The notes below the pieces were generated by a model. That model made no database searches. It was given only the letters and a program-made list of their open reading frames with translations, and was not told where the DNA came from. Below are positions 2,668-19,281 of a stretch of 64,000 nt of DNA, one piece after another (position 1 is the stretch's first letter; the number at the start of each line of letters is the position of its first letter). The translations under genes and the position numbers were made by a program. The DNA comes from Candidatus Bathyarchaeia archaeon (GTDB lineage: Archaea > Thermoproteota > Bathyarchaeia > 40CM-2-53-6). The stretch is taken from positions 416,001-480,000 of the forward strand of contig JBEKVV010000002.1 in NCBI GenBank assembly GCA_049513715.1. Reading direction: 5' to 3'.

Positions 2668-2780
2668 ACCCAACAGAGAACTCCGCCAAAGAGCCCATAA
2701 AGCAACCAAGTCGCCTTAGCGGGAGGGAGTCCGATGCATTAGCCAAAGCGGTACGAGTTGGGTTTATCCGGTTGGTCAAG

Positions 2781-2883
2781 GGTGAAATCAACAGATGGTG
2801 AGGTGACATCACCTTCCTCCCTTGTGAGGGTGTCAACACGCAAACGTTGGGTGTATACACCCCAGCATAGGTGTATGACACCC
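2781..2883. repeat. Cluster of CACC-N9-GGTG / GGTG-N4-5-CACC palindromes (copy 1)
   Basis: CACGCAAACGTTGGGTG 2837-2853 and neighbours; 2841-2860 identical to 14223-14242. Confidence 0.75.
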
Positions 2884-2972
2884 TGAGAGCATACGCTAGC
2901 AGCTTGAAACACTAGGAAGCTCGGGGGAATGTTCGCGATCATTGTCGGAGCGGAGCGTGATTCTAGGCCTTT

Positions 2973-3816: not shown

Positions 3817-3913
3817 TGGTGCGGCCGCCGGGATTCGGACCCGGGTCGTTGGCTTGGAAGGCCAATGGACGCCTAGAACGGCTATGTCCTAGACCAGGCT
3901 AGACTACGGCCGC
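3817..3913 (-). tRNA. tRNA-Gly(TCC) with 19-nt non-canonical intron at 27/28 (3865-3883); CCA encoded
   Basis: Cloverleaf GCGGCCG/CGGCCGC, anticodon arm TTGGC-CT-TCC-AA-GCCAA after intron removal; BHB with GGAC/GTCC central helix. Confidence 0.92.
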
Positions 3914-11866: not shown

Positions 11867-12457
11867 TTGAAGTGGACATCTGAACTGCCTCGAACAGAGG
11901 GTGGCTGGCGCACCATCCTCGCTGACCCACCATGGCACGAACAAGGATCAGGCAGATGCATTAGAGGAGCACAGAAATACTACCCCCTGATGAGTGAGGA
12001 AGAAATCTGCGCAATTCCACTGCGAGAAATCGTGGCCGACCAAGCCCATCTCTATCTTTGGGCAACTAACAACCATTTTCCTTCAGCACTCACAGTCATG
12101 GAGACATGGGGTTTCACATACAAGACATGCATCACATGGGCCAAGACGTCAGCCGGTTTCGGCTTGGGCCAATACTTCAGGGGAATGACCGAGCATTGCC
12201 TTTTCGGAACTCGTGGACCGACCTTGCCCTATCGCAAGAAACACGACGGCAAGAGAGCCCAGGGCACGACTTTGATCCTTGCCCCACGCGGAGAGCATTC
12301 TGTAAAGCCTGCGAAGATCTATGAGTTCGCAGAGACGGTGAGCTACGAACCTAGACTTGAATTGTTTGCCAGGCAGAAACGACAGGGTTGGACCGTATGG
12401 GGCTTAGAGGCACCGACCGCATCGCAGTCCCTCCTCGATCACACGTTTTCAAGATAA
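11867..12457 (+). CDS. MT-A70 family N6-adenine methyltransferase
   Basis: ILADPPW, HLYLWATN, WGFTYKTCITWAK, GLGQYFRGMTEHCLFG, HSVKP, RLELFAR, GWTVWG. Confidence 0.9.
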   Translation: MKWTSELPRTEGGWRTILADPPWHEQGSGRCIRGAQKYYPLMSEEEICAIPLREIVADQAHLYLWATNNHFPSALTVMETWGFTYKTCITWAKTSAGFGLGQYFRGMTEHCLFGTRGPTLPYRKKHDGKRAQGTTLILAPRGEHSVKPAKIYEFAETVSYEPRLELFARQKRQGWTVWGLEAPTASQSLLDHTFSR

Positions 12458-12546
12458 GTGAAGTTGGCAACTTCCAAAATCTCATCGAAGTTCTTATGCC
12501 GAAGGATCTATAGATCCATGAGTACGATTACGCTTAGCGTGTAATC

Positions 12547-13098
12547 TTGTCTCGGACTAGAATTCAGCAACAAGGCGACTTGGGCCAAAGAGCGGTTTGT
12601 AAGTACTGTATCTGCCCGAAGTGCAAGAAAGGAAGACTCAAGCAACTCATAGGCGGTTTCAAATGCGCAGATGTGATTTGCGATTTTTGCGGCTTTGTAG
12701 CCCAGGTGAAAGCTCCTGCGGTGAGAACAGCGAGTGACAGAGTGTTGACGATACTCGGTGGCGCGTGGAAAGTTCAGGAGGAGAAACTGAACGCGGGGAT
12801 TTATCACCCATTGTATATCGTCAAGATCGTTAATGGCAAACCTGTTGCGATTGATTACATAGCTGCTGACTTTCTAAGACCCGAAATGTACGTAGCAAGG
12901 AAAGCACTTAGTGCAAAGGCGAGGCGCGCGGGTTGGCAAGGGTTCATTTACGATTTAAGAAAGCTCGATGACCATGTCGTAGTCGAAGTATGGCCGAATT
13001 TGAGTCCACCGAAGACTGAAACGAAGCCACAGACAACTGACAAGTCAAAAGGAACAGAAAAGCAATCGATAGATACGAGACTAGATCGGTTTCGCTGA
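12547..13098 (+). CDS. DpnI/Dam-replacing-protein-like nuclease domain
   Basis: CPKC..ADVICDFC..QVK, ILGGAW, RKALSAKARRAGWQG resemble the DpnI N-terminal domain. Confidence 0.7.
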   Translation: MSRTRIQQQGDLGQRAVCKYCICPKCKKGRLKQLIGGFKCADVICDFCGFVAQVKAPAVRTASDRVLTILGGAWKVQEEKLNAGIYHPLYIVKIVNGKPVAIDYIAADFLRPEMYVARKALSAKARRAGWQGFIYDLRKLDDHVVVEVWPNLSPPKTETKPQTTDKSKGTEKQSIDTRLDRFR

Positions 13099-13163: not shown

Positions 13164-13670
13164 TTGTCGGAAAGGCGGCTCAGGTTCAGGATAAGGCGCG
13201 GTAACTTTGAGGTGGAGCTTGAAGGAGACCATGAGTATGTACGTGGCAAGTTTGAGGAGTTGCTCCAATCTCAACCCACAGCTGCCCTAGCTACATCATC
13301 GGGCGGCGGCGACCAATCAGTTGAAGCAATCGTTCCTGGTGAGGAGTTGGTGGGGATTTTGGAGGCGACGCCGGATGGTAAGTTGCATTTTACGATTCCG
13401 TTTGATAGGATTTCGGCGAAGGAAGCCATCGGCTTAATCCTATACAGCGGTAACCCGTCTCCGGTTGAGGATGCGAAGTTGATTGAGTGGCTGGGGACGA
13501 GTTGGAAGGCGGTTAAGGATAATGTGGTTCGCGCTCGGGTGAGCGAGTTAAGGAAGGAGGGCAAGCTTATCGCAGAACAGGGTCGCTACTCGCTCTCAGG
13601 CGCAGGCTTGCAGTGGATCACGCAGGAGGTTCTCCCGAAACTCCGCCCGCCACCATCCACCACACAGTAA
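13164..13670 (+). CDS. Winged-helix protein, paralog 1
   Basis: N-term FRIRRGNFEVELEG; C-term VRARVSELRKEGKLIAEQGRYSLSGAG. Confidence 0.75.
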   Translation: MSERRLRFRIRRGNFEVELEGDHEYVRGKFEELLQSQPTAALATSSGGGDQSVEAIVPGEELVGILEATPDGKLHFTIPFDRISAKEAIGLILYSGNPSPVEDAKLIEWLGTSWKAVKDNVVRARVSELRKEGKLIAEQGRYSLSGAGLQWITQEVLPKLRPPPSTTQ

Positions 13671-13958
13671 CCTGCAAGCTCTCGCCGCAACTAGTTCCTT
13701 TTCAGCGCGGCTAGTTATGGTTGGGGTGCGAAGAGGTCCCATTTCGTGTAGAAAGAGGGCCCACTTCACCGGTCGGGTTCAAGGAAATTGGCACAACACG
13801 ACTAGGTCTCAGGTAGGACGGTTCACAGCCCCGGACAACAGGTTACTGCTGATTGGTTGGTAGCTAGGTTGTTTTGGCCTCTTGCTGTGAATTGTCCTGG
13901 GAAAACCCAAGGCAGGGTGTCGGGCACGTGTTTGTTTTGGTCTGAGAGAGAGGGGAGG

Positions 13959-14242
13959 GGTGACATCACTTGATGGTGAGGTTCGCAAGATTGGACACAC
14001 CCGATGTTTGGGTGTGGCTCTTTTCATACATCCTCCGCGGGTCAGGTGAGGGCCTCAAGGTGTAATGCACCCGATGATTGGGTGCAATGCTCCCTATGCA
14101 GTACCCCTACCGGGGGGGTCACCTAAGCGTTGGGTGATTTCACCCTGCAGGAAACATGAGGGCTTCAAGGTGACAGTCACCTGATGTTTGGGTGCACCCT
14201 TTCCTCCGCGGGTGTATACACCCAAACGTTGGGTGTATACAC
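13959..14242. repeat. Array of 17-bp palindromes CACCYRANNNTTGGGTG (copy 2)
   Basis: Copies at 13998, 14068, 14120, 14178, 14219; 40-bp direct repeat 14047-14086/14157-14196 (33/40). Confidence 0.85.
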
Positions 14243-14300
14243 TTCTACCTGTCAAAGTGATTCCGTCGCCTACGTTGCCGAATACTCGCGGTCGTGGACT

Positions 14301-14606
14301 TCATGTGCGTTGGGTGGATGTGCTTTCGGCAGCATGGTGTCCTTTGAGTCGAGTGTTATCTTTGGTTTGTTGAAGCCACCGGAGGCGTTCTGCTCCGCGT
14401 TCTGAAAGTGAGTAAACTAGTACTCCTCCCTGCCGTTCTCGTTTCAATAGGCCAAGTTTGTAGTATCGCATCAACGCCATCCGGAGCGCATGAATCTCAA
14501 CCAAGATTCCGATGGGGGCCAGTCTTTTCGCTAGGGCTTCGCTATCTGTGGGGCCGACTTCAGAGAGCGCCTGAAGAATGACCAGTTTGAGTTGGTTATA
14601 GTCCAA
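14301..14606 (-). CDS. Small PadR-like winged-helix protein
   Basis: LVILQALSE...ALRMALMRYYKLGLLKRERQGGVLVYSLSERG. Confidence 0.75.
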   Translation of the reverse strand: MDYNQLKLVILQALSEVGPTDSEALAKRLAPIGILVEIHALRMALMRYYKLGLLKRERQGGVLVYSLSERGAERLRWLQQTKDNTRLKGHHAAESTSTQRT

Positions 14607-14840
14607 ACCTAGCCCTCACGTCCCCTTGAAGCGGCTGTCGCACGGTCGCCGTTGAGCTGGTGCACGTTAGATGGCCAATGAGCTGAAGGTGAGTAACACC
14701 TCGCAGAACTCTCAGCTCTGACACAATCTTGTATGGCAATGCACATTGCAACGTGCATGACGATGAGTAACACCTAGCAGGAATATTGCGCACTTCAAAG
14801 CTTATATGCTTTGCGAGAGTGAATGTGAAGTGAAAGTAAA

Positions 14841-15368
14841 ATGTCGGAAGGCCAACAGCAGCTCTCAAGCGTAGGACAACCACTAGACGTCACAATCAAG
14901 TACGGCTCACTGGAGAAAAAAATCACCGGCCAACCCGAACTCGTCATCAAAGAAGTCCTCACATTTCTAACAAAAATCATCCCCACGCTCGAACTTGCAT
15001 CGCACCTCGCACTCTCAGTCGACCTAAACGAACTAGCCCAAGCCTGCCAAGGCGTTCTCGCCGTAACCCCTGAAGGCGTAGTGGTCACCGTCCCAATCGA
15101 GAGCCTAGCTGATCGGGAGCTCATTCTACTCCACTTGGCCAAAGCTCGAATCGCTCAAATGCTCGGCAAGTCCGACAAGGACTATGTCCAATCAGCCGAC
15201 TTGATTGCGGCCACGAAACGAACCTCCGGAACCGTAGCAGGCCGCCTCAGCGAACTCTGCGGAGAAAACTTGGCGGAAAGAAAGGGCAAAGGCGAGTACC
15301 GCGCCACAACCCTCGGCCTACACATCTTCCGAGAGCAAATCCTTCCGAAACTGAAACCAAAAACATAG
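14841..15368 (+). CDS. Winged-helix protein, paralog 2
   Basis: GVLAVTPEG; TVAGRLSELCGENLAERKGKGEYRATTLG; ends EQILPKLK like paralog 1 QEVLPKLR. Confidence 0.75.
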   Translation: MSEGQQQLSSVGQPLDVTIKYGSLEKKITGQPELVIKEVLTFLTKIIPTLELASHLALSVDLNELAQACQGVLAVTPEGVVVTVPIESLADRELILLHLAKARIAQMLGKSDKDYVQSADLIAATKRTSGTVAGRLSELCGENLAERKGKGEYRATTLGLHIFREQILPKLKPKT

Positions 15369-15380
15369 GAGTCGCAAACA

Positions 15381-15884
15381 GTGTCAAGAACAGAAACTGT
15401 GCAAATCAAAATCCAGGTTGAAGTCAACGGGTTACATTACGAAGCCTCAGGGTCTGTTGAGGAGATTGTTCCGCAACTTCTCCAGTTCCTATCACAGGCA
15501 GTCCCGACGTACGATTTGGCGAAGAGGCTCGTCTTTGTCCCTGACCTAGCCGGTTTGACCGACAAGGTGTCAGACTTCGCAAAGATGACTGCCACAGGAC
15601 AACTGCTGCTCACTCGCAATGATATCCCAGCGGACCGGGCTATCTCAATTCTACTATTCATGGCCCACCTTGCCGGCAAGATGGGCAAACGGGAATCAGA
15701 TTCCTTGAGCATCGAGGAGATCGCAACCGGCGTTGGCAAGGCGCCCAAGACCATTAGGAACGTGATCGTTGAACTCCAAAAATCCGCGCTCATTGACCGA
15801 ACGGATAGGGGAAAGTATCGGGTCACTCAGAAGGGTTTGATGCAACTCGAAACTTTCCTGCTCAACGGAGGCGCTTCAAAGTAG
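15381..15884 (+). CDS. Winged-helix protein, paralog 3
   Basis: AGGAG RBS; LSIEEIATGVGKAPKTIRNVIVELQKSALIDRTDRGKYRVTQKG. Confidence 0.75.
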   Translation: MSRTETVQIKIQVEVNGLHYEASGSVEEIVPQLLQFLSQAVPTYDLAKRLVFVPDLAGLTDKVSDFAKMTATGQLLLTRNDIPADRAISILLFMAHLAGKMGKRESDSLSIEEIATGVGKAPKTIRNVIVELQKSALIDRTDRGKYRVTQKGLMQLETFLLNGGASK

Positions 15885-15982
15885 CACGAGGTGCCCACCA
15901 AAATCATGGCCCTTACTCAAGGTGAGGGTGCGGCGGCGCGGGAGTTTCGGGGGAAACAGCCCGCAACGGGGGCGAGAGTAAC

Positions 15983-17104
15983 ATGAACCACCGCACCCAC
16001 CCATCAGCAGCTACGGAGCAGCAGAGGATAAGTAACTTTCTCTACCCAGACGACGTGCTCAGCCCAGGCGCCCTACCAGAACGTTTCATCGAATTTTGCC
16101 GAACCTCAATCGAGGGCGTACGCGGAGACGTACTATACACAGAATCAGCAATCGCTCCAACCTTCAACGTGCCCGAATTCGACGACGAAGACGCCCGCTC
16201 CATCGAACTCAACCAACTCCACGAAGAACGCATAATCCCACTCAAGCCAACAAAGTCAAACCGCCCCGTCGCCGCCATCGACACCTCCACCATCAAACTC
16301 GGCGAACTCGCCGACGGCACACTCTGCGCACTTCGAGGTGCAGTCGTATTGCTCGAAAACGGACGCTACAGATACGTCCGATACGGTCCGCTCGTTTTCT
16401 CTCTCGGTAACAATAGCTTGGCAGATTTCAGCGGATTCGGAAACCTCACGCTGTCTCCATTTACTGGCGAGCCCAACGTTGACAGCCTCCTCAAACGGGT
16501 ACGAAACATCCTCGAACGCTGGCTTCAGTTCAGCGTCAGTTCATCAATCTCGAACGGATTCGTACTGATCGATGGCTCCCTAACGGCTGGCACGCCGGAC
16601 AACCCGTCAAAGGAACTGGAACGAATTCTTGAAACCGCCCGCCGAAACCGAAGCATAGTCGCCGCCATATCCAAGAAAACAAAATTACGCATCAACAACA
16701 AATCCATAACCGAACTCCTGGAGCATCGGATAGAACCTTGCCTGTTGAATGTGGACGCGGAGGTCACAGAGCAATTTCCACCCTACCCCGTGCGCTTTCT
16801 CGGCCGCGTCTTCGTAGGTAGGCTAGCAAAGTCCGGTTATCCATTCAGAATGGATGTCGACCGCGAAATACCACTCCAAGACACCGTAACTGGGCTTCAA
16901 CAATTAACTGGAACAGACATTGTTGACCAGGGCTACCCTGAAACGCTGCGCATGGCCCACATACTCTCCACTTTCACCGCCGGCGACGTGCTGGCTATGC
17001 AAGTTGTCGCAGCCGCACAATTCGGCGTTCAACTAATACCTAAACTCGCGCTTCGGCGGTCACTCTTCGGTCCCTTCGGAACAGCTTGGGAGGCTTGGCA
17101 TTGA
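15983..17104 (+). CDS. nurA: NurA-family 5'-3' nuclease
   Basis: VAAIDTS, VLIDGSL, AISKKT, GYPETLRMAH. Confidence 0.8.
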   Translation: MNHRTHPSAATEQQRISNFLYPDDVLSPGALPERFIEFCRTSIEGVRGDVLYTESAIAPTFNVPEFDDEDARSIELNQLHEERIIPLKPTKSNRPVAAIDTSTIKLGELADGTLCALRGAVVLLENGRYRYVRYGPLVFSLGNNSLADFSGFGNLTLSPFTGEPNVDSLLKRVRNILERWLQFSVSSSISNGFVLIDGSLTAGTPDNPSKELERILETARRNRSIVAAISKKTKLRINNKSITELLEHRIEPCLLNVDAEVTEQFPPYPVRFLGRVFVGRLAKSGYPFRMDVDREIPLQDTVTGLQQLTGTDIVDQGYPETLRMAHILSTFTAGDVLAMQVVAAAQFGVQLIPKLALRRSLFGPFGTAWEAWH

Positions 17105-18558
17105 AAATCCTCCGCAAAGAAGGCGACAGCATACACCTACTGAGCTTCCCCGACGAAGAGGTCGAGAAAGGGGACTACCTGTTAGTCACTGACCGAATCA
17201 AGGACCGCTCCCTAATCGTGCAAATCATCGACGTGCAATACGCCAACATACCGGGCATTCTAGAGGACATGTTACGCGACGGCATTTCAGAGGGGTCCTT
17301 TTCGGGGGACGATGTGGACCCGTTCAAAGTATCCTCCCAGATCACAGTTCTGAAGGACACCCGACTTCTGCTGGGAAAGATACGGGGCGCGTTAGAGCAA
17401 GGCCACCTTAGCCGAGACGTCGCATGGCTGCCGTCCCGGAACCATTCGCAGGTGCAAGTCATGCCCCCAAAACTCCTAACAGACTCTCTGGCGGGCAGAC
17501 ACTCATTCGAACTTGGATCCACTCGCCGTTTCCCACACATCGTCTCTGACTTGGCCGCCCTAGATGGGAGATTGAACATAGTTACCGGAAGGAAAGGCAC
17601 CGGGAAATCCCATCTCACAAAACTCCTCGTTACGAGCCTCGTGAAAGAGGGGGCGCCCGTGATTGTCTTCGACGTAAATGGGGAATATGTGAACCTAGGG
17701 AGGACCTCGGATGGCCGCGAAATGCACCTTTCACCAAAAATCATTTCACTTATCCCCGGCATCAACCTGAGATTCAGTCTCAGCCAAGTCGGCCTGGCCA
17801 CGCTCCTTGGAACTCTGATTTACGCCCTCTCCCTCCCGGAAAACTCAGCCCGGGTGTTCGCAAGGATCTGGCGCGACCTCGAAGAGCAGAACCAACTAAC
17901 TATGACAGGCCTCGGCGCAGCCATAGCCAATTCCGACTGCCACGACAGCATTAAGGACGCTCTGCAGGCCAGGTTCAACACGCTCGACGATTCAGGCATA
18001 TTCACTGACGACCATCGCACAGCCCTCAACTTAGAAGATGTATTCCGAAACCACTCATCCGGCTGCGCGTTAGTAGTCAACATGAAGAACCAGTACTCAG
18101 CTATGCGCCGAATCACAGTCGAACTCCTAATCAGCAAACTAACAGAACTACTCTCAACCCAAAAGTTACGTGCGCTCTTCCTGTTCGCTGAAGAGGCTCA
18201 CTTGTACCTTCGCGAAACCTACTGGGACGATGTTGTCACAAGAATGCGCCATCTGGGCATGTTCACAACCTTCGTAACCAATCAGCCAGACACAATCCAA
18301 AGCAGCATCTATCGGCAAGCCGACAATGTCTTTCTCTTTAATTTCAGTAATGACCATGACCTTGACATCGTTTCAAAGGTTGCAAAGGTCGACGCCGACA
18401 CAATCAGAATGATCGTCCGAGACCTTCCTCCGCACAGATGTTTGGTAATAGGAGACGTTGTTGCAAACTTTCCGCTAGTCGTAAACATACGCCCACTTGA
18501 AGTGCAGACCCTAGGCGCTACGCGCTACTTCTTCGAAAACCAACTGGCCGCGGTTTAA
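17101..18558 (+). CDS. herA: HerA/FtsK-like ATPase (DUF87, HAS-barrel)
   Basis: Walker A TGRKGTGKS, VFDVNGEY, Walker B LFAEEAHLY, RMRHLG, VTNQP; TTG overlaps nurA stop. Confidence 0.85.
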   Translation: MKILRKEGDSIHLLSFPDEEVEKGDYLLVTDRIKDRSLIVQIIDVQYANIPGILEDMLRDGISEGSFSGDDVDPFKVSSQITVLKDTRLLLGKIRGALEQGHLSRDVAWLPSRNHSQVQVMPPKLLTDSLAGRHSFELGSTRRFPHIVSDLAALDGRLNIVTGRKGTGKSHLTKLLVTSLVKEGAPVIVFDVNGEYVNLGRTSDGREMHLSPKIISLIPGINLRFSLSQVGLATLLGTLIYALSLPENSARVFARIWRDLEEQNQLTMTGLGAAIANSDCHDSIKDALQARFNTLDDSGIFTDDHRTALNLEDVFRNHSSGCALVVNMKNQYSAMRRITVELLISKLTELLSTQKLRALFLFAEEAHLYLRETYWDDVVTRMRHLGMFTTFVTNQPDTIQSSIYRQADNVFLFNFSNDHDLDIVSKVAKVDADTIRMIVRDLPPHRCLVIGDVVANFPLVVNIRPLEVQTLGATRYFFENQLAAV

Positions 18559-18924: not shown

Positions 18925-19281
18925 TTGAAAGAAATAGCGCCCGAACGAATTTTCAACCTTCACCCAAAGATCAGGTGGGCAGGTTTGGCGAGTGATGGCG
19001 GAGATCTCTTGTTCTCCAAGATGAGGTCAAACGTTGAAAGCATCTCACCACAAGCCACGGACGAGTCGTTTATGCAATTGGGGCCAATGCTGTTATCGGG
19101 GATATGTGAACGCCTTGCTTCATGTGCCGGTCCCCTTGACAATGTTGTGAGCACGTACGAAAAAGTAGCGTTGATTGTAAAGAGGCTCGGGAACCGATAC
19201 CTTGCGATCACTATCAACAGGTCTGACGAGTCAGTCCTACCCGAAATAATCGAGAAGTTGCAGGAATTATCCGCGGAATAG
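18925..19281 (+). CDS. Roadblock/profilin-like small protein (DUF6659-like)
   Basis: IRWAGLASDGG.LLFSKMR ... LASCAGPLDNVVSTYEKV. Confidence 0.6.
   Translation: MKEIAPERIFNLHPKIRWAGLASDGGDLLFSKMRSNVESISPQATDESFMQLGPMLLSGICERLASCAGPLDNVVSTYEKVALIVKRLGNRYLAITINRSDESVLPEIIEKLQELSAE

Follow-up and report, generated by a model that had tools for sequence, protein, structure and literature searches.

Intergenic arrays in a Bathyarchaeia genome carry fragments of the viral gene located directly before the large terminase

REP/BIME mosaics and BOX elements of bacteria are intergenic, modular and palindromic, and they are reshuffled between loci. Packaging signals of tailed phages are a second point of comparison for the locus described here. 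In P22, pac lies within the small-terminase gene terS (PMC11260489), and look-alikes of this recognition site on the host chromosome can start packaging (PMC11260489, PMC10996546). The Salmonella sites are single look-alikes of 12-17 bp, of host origin and conserved across strains (PMC11260489, PMC10996546). In SPP1, pac (pacL/pacC/pacR) overlaps gene 1 and its promoters; the site has two sub-sites and extends over the beginning of terS or the part that encodes DNA binding, and its binding may also regulate the gene (PMC6316719). SaPIs and other PICIs are non-viral elements with a terS and with chromosomal sites read by its product (PMC6687093). Chromosomal pseudo-pac sites are accordingly described as look-alikes, both in Salmonella (PMC10996546, PMC11260489) and for SaPIs (PMC6687093). 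In archaea, the element NitKor-E1 of Thaumarchaeota carries terS and the large-terminase gene terL without other head genes; this terminase-only element is called enigmatic and likely a relic (PMC6563490).

In this study, we describe an array in a 64,000-nucleotide stretch of Bathyarchaeia DNA (the window). Related arrays are dispersed in the genome, the array is absent from the orthologous gap in relatives, and its copies originate in the gene that precedes terL in tailed viruses of Bathyarchaeia. Like REP/BIME and BOX elements, the arrays are intergenic, modular, palindromic and reshuffled; unlike them, their units trace to a viral gene, they occupy about 16 loci and not hundreds, and genome G000 has no Y1 transposase. 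In contrast to the Salmonella sites, the array consists of true viral-gene pieces that include coding flanks, stem from several lineages and lack conservation between species; its role in packaging is putative. Compared to SaPIs and PICIs, the arrays and the examined terminase cassettes of this genus are without integrase, replication module and att ends (none seen by ORF reading at the array or around L195-L198), and the cassettes add terL. NitKor-E1 has an integrase (PMC6563490), whereas here the module is found in several genomes, has open frames and a low dN/dS, and is accompanied by dispersed arrays of sites. Searches of the open-access literature gave no description of the motif, of pac-site arrays or decoys in archaea, or of arrays built from genuine viral-gene pieces of several lineages.

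The array and the gap in which it lies

An earlier note on this DNA had listed five 17-mers at positions 13998, 14068, 14120, 14178 and 14219 (spacing 70/52/58/41), a 40-bp repeat (33/40, 110 bp apart) and two occurrences of TCCTCCGCGGGT (14031 and 14202), all within a gap of 630 bp between two converging genes. All of this was recovered as described; the gap, measured between the two stop codons, is 13671..14300, the 40-bp repeat stands at 14047-14086 and 14157-14196 (83%), and a third copy of it (70%) was found at 13977. With at most one mismatch, CACCYRANNNTTGGGTG has 12 matches at 7 places in the window, where 100 shuffles give an expectation of 0.07. The 17-mer first seen is part of a longer unit, a double site of 33-35 bp, made of GGTG-N4/5-CACC twice with a 9-bp spacer, in which the two pseudo-palindromes stand 21-22 bp apart and the 17-mer is the inner part. 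The motif does look like a set of sites for a dimeric DNA-binding protein, as the earlier note had proposed. An assembly artefact is unlikely, because contigs of 4 of 24 public DNA runs match the flanks on both sides without difference; the contigs of these four runs break inside the array repeats. Scans for tandem repeats and for tRNAs returned nothing at the array. A CRISPR array was ruled out, since the units differ in arms and spacer, the spacing varies between 41 and 70, and the linkers recur at other loci. Elsewhere in the window, ARAGORN calls a tRNA-Pyl (CUA) at 3817-3913, which may be a mis-called intron-bearing tRNA, and a lone 17-mer match without outer arms at 18961-18977, inside the ORF 18925-19281, is probably due to chance.

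Further modules surround the five units. A degenerate sixth site of another spacer type (13958..13980, plus strand) is complete at C3:520612 of G000 and elsewhere; its TerS peptide match is not above shuffles. The left flank modules (13877..13980) are common to C1:544415-544538 of G000. The right flank (14244..14290) is common to the arrays on C9 and at C1:721k, and its homology stops 10 bp short of the stop codon of the neighbouring PaaX-like gene. A short repeat module (13730..13776) also occurs at C1:420379, at C6:66702 and beside other arrays. The window holds a second array of the same family, likewise between converging genes (2729..2895), with one near-perfect site of the type of copy 5 (see below).

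Both genes that border the gap lie outside the element. The earlier note took them for wHTH genes, which is borne out for the right one (14301..14606, minus strand) by a PaaX-like wHTH match (E 3.7e-5); the left one (13164..13670, plus strand) has no Pfam match but is 31% like the wHTH-like protein at 14841. The PaaX-like gene is present in 22 of 23 genomes of the genus, and the left gene is kept in the genus without the array. Conservation of the motif in orthologous gaps, a check which the note had proposed, gave a negative answer: behind the PaaX-like gene the motif is found in none of 21 relatives, and in all 21 the gap bears no likeness to the array gap. Its length, measurable in 19 of them, is 5-966 bp, and 5-153 bp in 13 of the 19. 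The same array stands at the same locus in the close relative L099, where it is split by an insertion sequence. On these grounds we regard the gap as holding a lineage-specific insertion with a mosaic array.

Four wHTH-like genes (13164-18558) form a conserved cluster ahead of nurA-herA, and the gap within this cluster is an insertion hot spot: 5 of 19 relatives have unrelated genes there. The wHTH gene is immediately preceded on its left, at 11867-13098, by genes for an MT-A70 methyltransferase and a DpnI-like protein, which are not at the corresponding place in those loci of relatives that were read; in G014 (L002) a DpnI-like gene also stands ahead of an array. At L121:341-920, the array occupies another locus, beside tRNA-tail repeats, and is joined there to the 31 final codons of the PaaX-like gene, which points either to a transfer of the block along with host sequence or to a rearrangement of the locus.

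Concerning the genome as a whole, BLAST with iterative expansion identifies about 16 related intergenic regions in G000, 4 of which share only linker modules, and C9 carries a 275-bp copy of the array (89%). The modules recur in different orders among the loci. All 10 strict double-site loci are outside ORFs of at least 150 aa, which make up 76% of the genome, and 8 of the 16 regions lie between converging genes, as compared to 190 of 955 background gaps (crude gene calls). Three simulated genomes gave 0, 1 and 0 matches against 18 in the real one; the reversed pattern, with 6 matches in G000, is not a clean negative control, 5 of these being tRNA 3' ends. Of 301 genomes in the class, 3 have the strict motif, and these belong to this genus; the loose motif occurs in 9 of the 23 genomes of the genus, the other 14 showing none. 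Four integrase matches were obtained, none at an array. About 35 places in G000 (e.g. C10:2441, C7:9569, C4:236576) belong to a separate dispersed family which resembles tRNA 3' ends and borders accessory genes. At C1:869121-870297 a HicB/HicA-like pair (named by reading) is located between two copies of one array module. In the window, the segment 7337-7444 matches, at about 82% over 50 nt, sequence that separates the portal gene from the protease gene in four viral contigs of bathyarchaeal tailed viruses, and by this likeness appears to be another captured viral fragment.

The viral source gene and its double site

A metagenome scan for the motif returned 81 stretches, many of them from unrelated organisms by G+C, and loci outside 44-57% G+C were dropped before the double site was read in frame. 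At several metagenome loci it lies in frame within a gene of about 175 aa, which is directly followed by large-terminase and portal genes in the context of tailed proviruses and viral contigs. terL is directly downstream at 10 of 15 distinct loci (L105, L138, L173-L175, L184, L186, L191-L193); at the other five (L120, L145, L177-L179) the gene stands alone, without terL. The seven viral or proviral loci that were read, which are partial viral genomes, have at most one complete double site each, within this gene. The protein family comprises 74 members, from Bathyarchaeia wherever a source is named. Searches of viral contigs gave 0 matches with the narrow motif pattern and 3 with a wider one; of these, two fall in the terS of a single virus and the third belongs to an unrelated, AT-rich phage. 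In G000 itself no gene of the family is found today, nor any portal or capsid match. In this virus family terL was seen as two separate ORFs, one for the ATPase and one for the nuclease, which overlap or are at most 260 bp apart (L105:4341-5787, L138:4351-5764, L173, L174, L175), and fused in L198 and on C4 of G000.

The gene of about 175 aa is likely terS by its position and its predicted architecture, a ribbon-helix-helix (RHH) domain plus a helical oligomer, and not by homology. Its N-terminus gives RHH and NikA-like matches in 12 and 7 of 52 members, which are weak and below the cut-off. The predicted model is helical (pLDDT 78.5). Four copies reach a homo-oligomer score of 0.52 via helices 100-144, against 0.00 for the best control, on a scale calibrated on two copies, where 20 of the 30 solved pairs attain the mark, as does 1 of the 23 single chains; between runs, 62% of the contacts agree, with pLDDT of at least 69. 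Likeness to known TerS proteins was searched for in PHROG (no match) and with Foldseek in PDB and BFVD (none at E<=0.001), and a protein atlas gave no usable match. The gp1 protein of SPP1 uses an HTH, whereas the protein described here has a predicted RHH and no detectable likeness to gp1. The gene may be named in the annotation tables of papers on Bathyarchaeia viruses (10.1101/2023.08.24.554615, PMC11705971).

Within terS the two arms of the double site fall into different reading frames; even so, 6 of 9 distinct pairs have identical cores (shuffle mean 0.88). Since the arms vary together as direct DNA copies, the site is a feature of the DNA and not an RNA stem, and likely one bound by TerS. 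We consider the double site a probable pac-type signal. Its two pseudo-palindromes, 21-22 bp apart, would be read by RHH dimers, and the site would mark the start of packaging. Among pairs below 85% C-terminal identity, positions 7 and 9 of the predicted base-reading RHH strand rank 4th and 3rd of 37 in tracking the site class; this co-variation may be due to shared descent, since a single segment of the gene contains both the strand residues and the site. The identity of the arms could stem from slippage of the 21-22-bp repeat, contracted forms of which are seen in L179 and P0025. In one distant lineage the motif stands at the start of the gene instead.

Translated, all five array copies give pieces of the TerS linker peptide, four of them on the minus strand. 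Copy 1 (13975..14028, 17-mer at 13998) reads YEKSHTQTSGVSNLANLT and belongs to the lineage of P0024/P0030 (P0024 score 66; best of 30 shuffles 40); it is 81% alike over 43 nt to the viral terS in L173. Copy 2 (14045..14095, 17-mer at 14068) reads REHCTQSSGALHLEALT (P0040 score 53; best of 30 shuffles 39), is matched by nhmmer at E 8.4e-7 and is 80% alike over 40 nt to terS in L172. In copy 3 (14118..14150, 17-mer at 14120), which reads LQGEITQRLGD, 10 of 11 residues are identical to P0017 (score 51; best of 30 shuffles 36). These three copies represent three different lineages. Copy 4 (14158..14193, 17-mer at 14178) reads TQTSGDCHLEAL with a marginal score (P0040 44; best of 30 shuffles 41) and an nhmmer E of 3.5e-5; as it matches copy 2 in 33 of 40 positions, it is possibly an old duplicate of the latter. 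Copy 5 (14211..14243, 17-mer at 14219) reads GVYTQTLGVYT on the plus strand, similar to the 4-nt-arm lineage (P0014, P0023), again with a marginal score (P0060 45; best of 30 shuffles 42), and its strand is ambiguous because it is palindromic. It is a complete double site with near-identical 12-bp arms, 85% alike over 33 nt to terS in L174.

The copies carry coding flanks of terS beyond the palindrome, which sets the direction as from gene to array, and they very probably originate in terS. A DNA profile of 10 whole terS genes gave 10 matches in G000 at E<0.05, all of them within positions 90-195 of 525. Partial terS matches, obtained with one query gene and no motif filter in the 23 genomes of the genus, cover the site in 12 of 14 cases. 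When the seven viral loci were tiled, 4 of the 6 gene-holding loci had a site of about 50 nt with matches at 4-7 places in G000, and segments other than the site matched at most 2, insertion sequences apart. The site of L105 had no match to G000 in this tiling; in L175 the inner site is degenerate, and only an upstream variant matches G000. The left ends of the terS fragments cluster near the start of the site. We do not claim a polarity of the fragments, because the sequence upstream of the site is more variable.

Origin and possible role of the arrays

The explanation that we favour, with some reserve, is that the array consists of viral terS pieces from at least three lineages, which are centred on likely pac-type sites, may have been captured by break repair and are likely near-neutral scars. 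The pieces, 33-55 bp long, would derive from the gene directly before terL, likely terS, of bathyarchaeal tailed viruses. The viral terminase would make DNA breaks, whose repair would capture and copy site-centred pieces; terminase cutting with end-joining and template copying between arrays are candidate routes. Even as scars, the chromosomal pieces would still serve as packaging or cutting sites in an infection. Capture through terminase breaks is the more tentative part, which we hold to be plausible but somewhat short of probable. In comparisons of related arrays the sites show no extra conservation over the linkers, with changes at 16/172 vs 5/144, 6/172 vs 3/144 and 15/142 vs 11/130 positions (sites vs linkers). 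Against the explanation as a whole, copies 4 and 5 stand narrowly above shuffles, and a source match was obtained neither for the sixth site nor for the outer flanks.

Alternatively, the arrays could be selected parts of a host system, in which pac-type sites and terminase-only cassettes steer the capsids of helper viruses (gene transfer) or soak up TerS (defence). We consider this unlikely, albeit worth keeping in view. SaPIs offer a precedent with an island terS and pseudo-pac sites (PMC6687093), and a terS-terL block of about 2.06 kb without portal or capsid neighbours does occur in G004, G012 and G014, in different surroundings. The three blocks are 90-91% alike, end at the terL stop and have open frames with dN/dS of 0.10-0.19; this purifying selection, however, may date from viral ancestors. 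Cassettes of this kind, terS plus split terL with a shared 3' end at the terL stop, were located at L195:9175-11231, L196:9049-11104 and L197:9665-11732. TerL ATPase matches are found at 24 loci in 11 of the 23 genomes of the genus, as compared to only 2 loci in 2 genomes each for the portal and the capsid of this virus family, where single-protein queries miss distant families. Moreover, terL loci are present in 8 of 8 genomes with at least three motif matches and in 3 of 14 without the motif, kin not being independent in this count. L177 and L178 fuse the 5' end of the cassette to another terS allele, and only that part of terS which bears the site is retained. This is to be set against chromosomal sites without extra conservation, an array disrupted by an insertion sequence, patchy and non-orthologous positions with no motif in 14 of 23 genomes, and the lack of a cognate TerS in G000. 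In a bolder form, the genus would collect the packaging sites of many lineages, together with mobile cassettes of terminase genes alone, which would exchange terS alleles with viruses, and capsids would be steered to host DNA or the terminase drawn off by it; to this form we give the same low likelihood.

Some further terminase sequences were observed. In L196 a 38-bp copy of the terL end is found again further on, past a small cassette. In G000 the broken 3' end of the cassette is found at C3:520.7k, where it adjoins a site, and the 5' site of the cassette is at C1:874007; C4:146541-148245 holds a pair of a terS-like gene and terL of another family, near tRNA-Asp and without head genes, and two further terL pieces lie at C11:1332-2246 and C8:65766-65966.

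The double site might instead be a repeat prone to recombination or slippage and unrelated to packaging, through which viral DNA enters: an att/res-like site (13+9+13), a REP/BIME-like unit or an autoregulatory operator. Its loxP-like proportions, the mosaic shuffling among loci, hairpins of -4.5 to -14.3 kcal/mol, the clustered replacement of the site core between related arrays and the position of the site in L191-L193, at the gene start behind a TATA-like stretch, fit such a repeat. Yet no provirus was seen split at the site, and breakpoints of inter-array homology are not enriched in sites (19/29, expected fraction 0.65, p 0.55), which argues against crossover there. A Y1 HUH (REP-type) transposase (PF01797) was not found in G000, with a control signal in 6/14, and no integrase lies beside the arrays. 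The terS coding flanks on the copies give the direction from gene to array. We judge this reading improbable. For the operator in particular, the roles of operator and pac coincide in SPP1 (PMC6316719).

Two readings from the earlier note have retained hardly any likelihood. The first, a host platform for the neighbouring wHTH proteins (parS-like, matS/Ter-like or an origin), has in its favour that the clustered palindromes adjoin the conserved four-wHTH cluster and that the cumulative GC skew has a local peak at 14-15 kb, as the proposed check of skew position revealed; this peak, though, is one of several in the window. The platform is largely refuted by the relatives, all 21 of which have retained the wHTH gene but show no array in the gap, an outcome that the note itself had named as speaking against it. 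The motif is moreover dispersed and derived from a viral gene, and the nearest cdc6 is about 28 kb from the array; around the three cdc6 genes, a loose scan for ORB motifs detected no cluster and so did not locate the true origin. The second, a multi-hairpin non-coding RNA, is equally far-fetched: its folding z-scores (-6.5 on the plus and -4.0 on the minus strand) speak for it, but this stability follows from the inverted repeats, the arm cores vary as direct and not as complementary copies so that pairing is broken, the order of the modules differs between loci, and the 6 Rfam matches all have E>=1.4, far below the gathering score.

Meaning for Bathyarchaeia and their viruses

For an uncultured family of archaeal viruses, the double site and the gene that contains it provide a candidate packaging signal and a candidate small terminase of the RHH type. 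The matched variants of protein and site are a natural series, which is testable in vitro. On the side of the archaeon, the repeat family, which is dispersed between genes and derives from a single spot of a viral gene, is a record of past infections by several viral lineages. Should the sites still function, they would be fixed start points for the transduction of host DNA, where viruses would cut or package the chromosome, and they would also be relevant to terminase-only modules, a puzzling feature of archaeal genomes. The host belongs to a lineage that is abundant in sediment and peat, and little is known of how this lineage exchanges genes.
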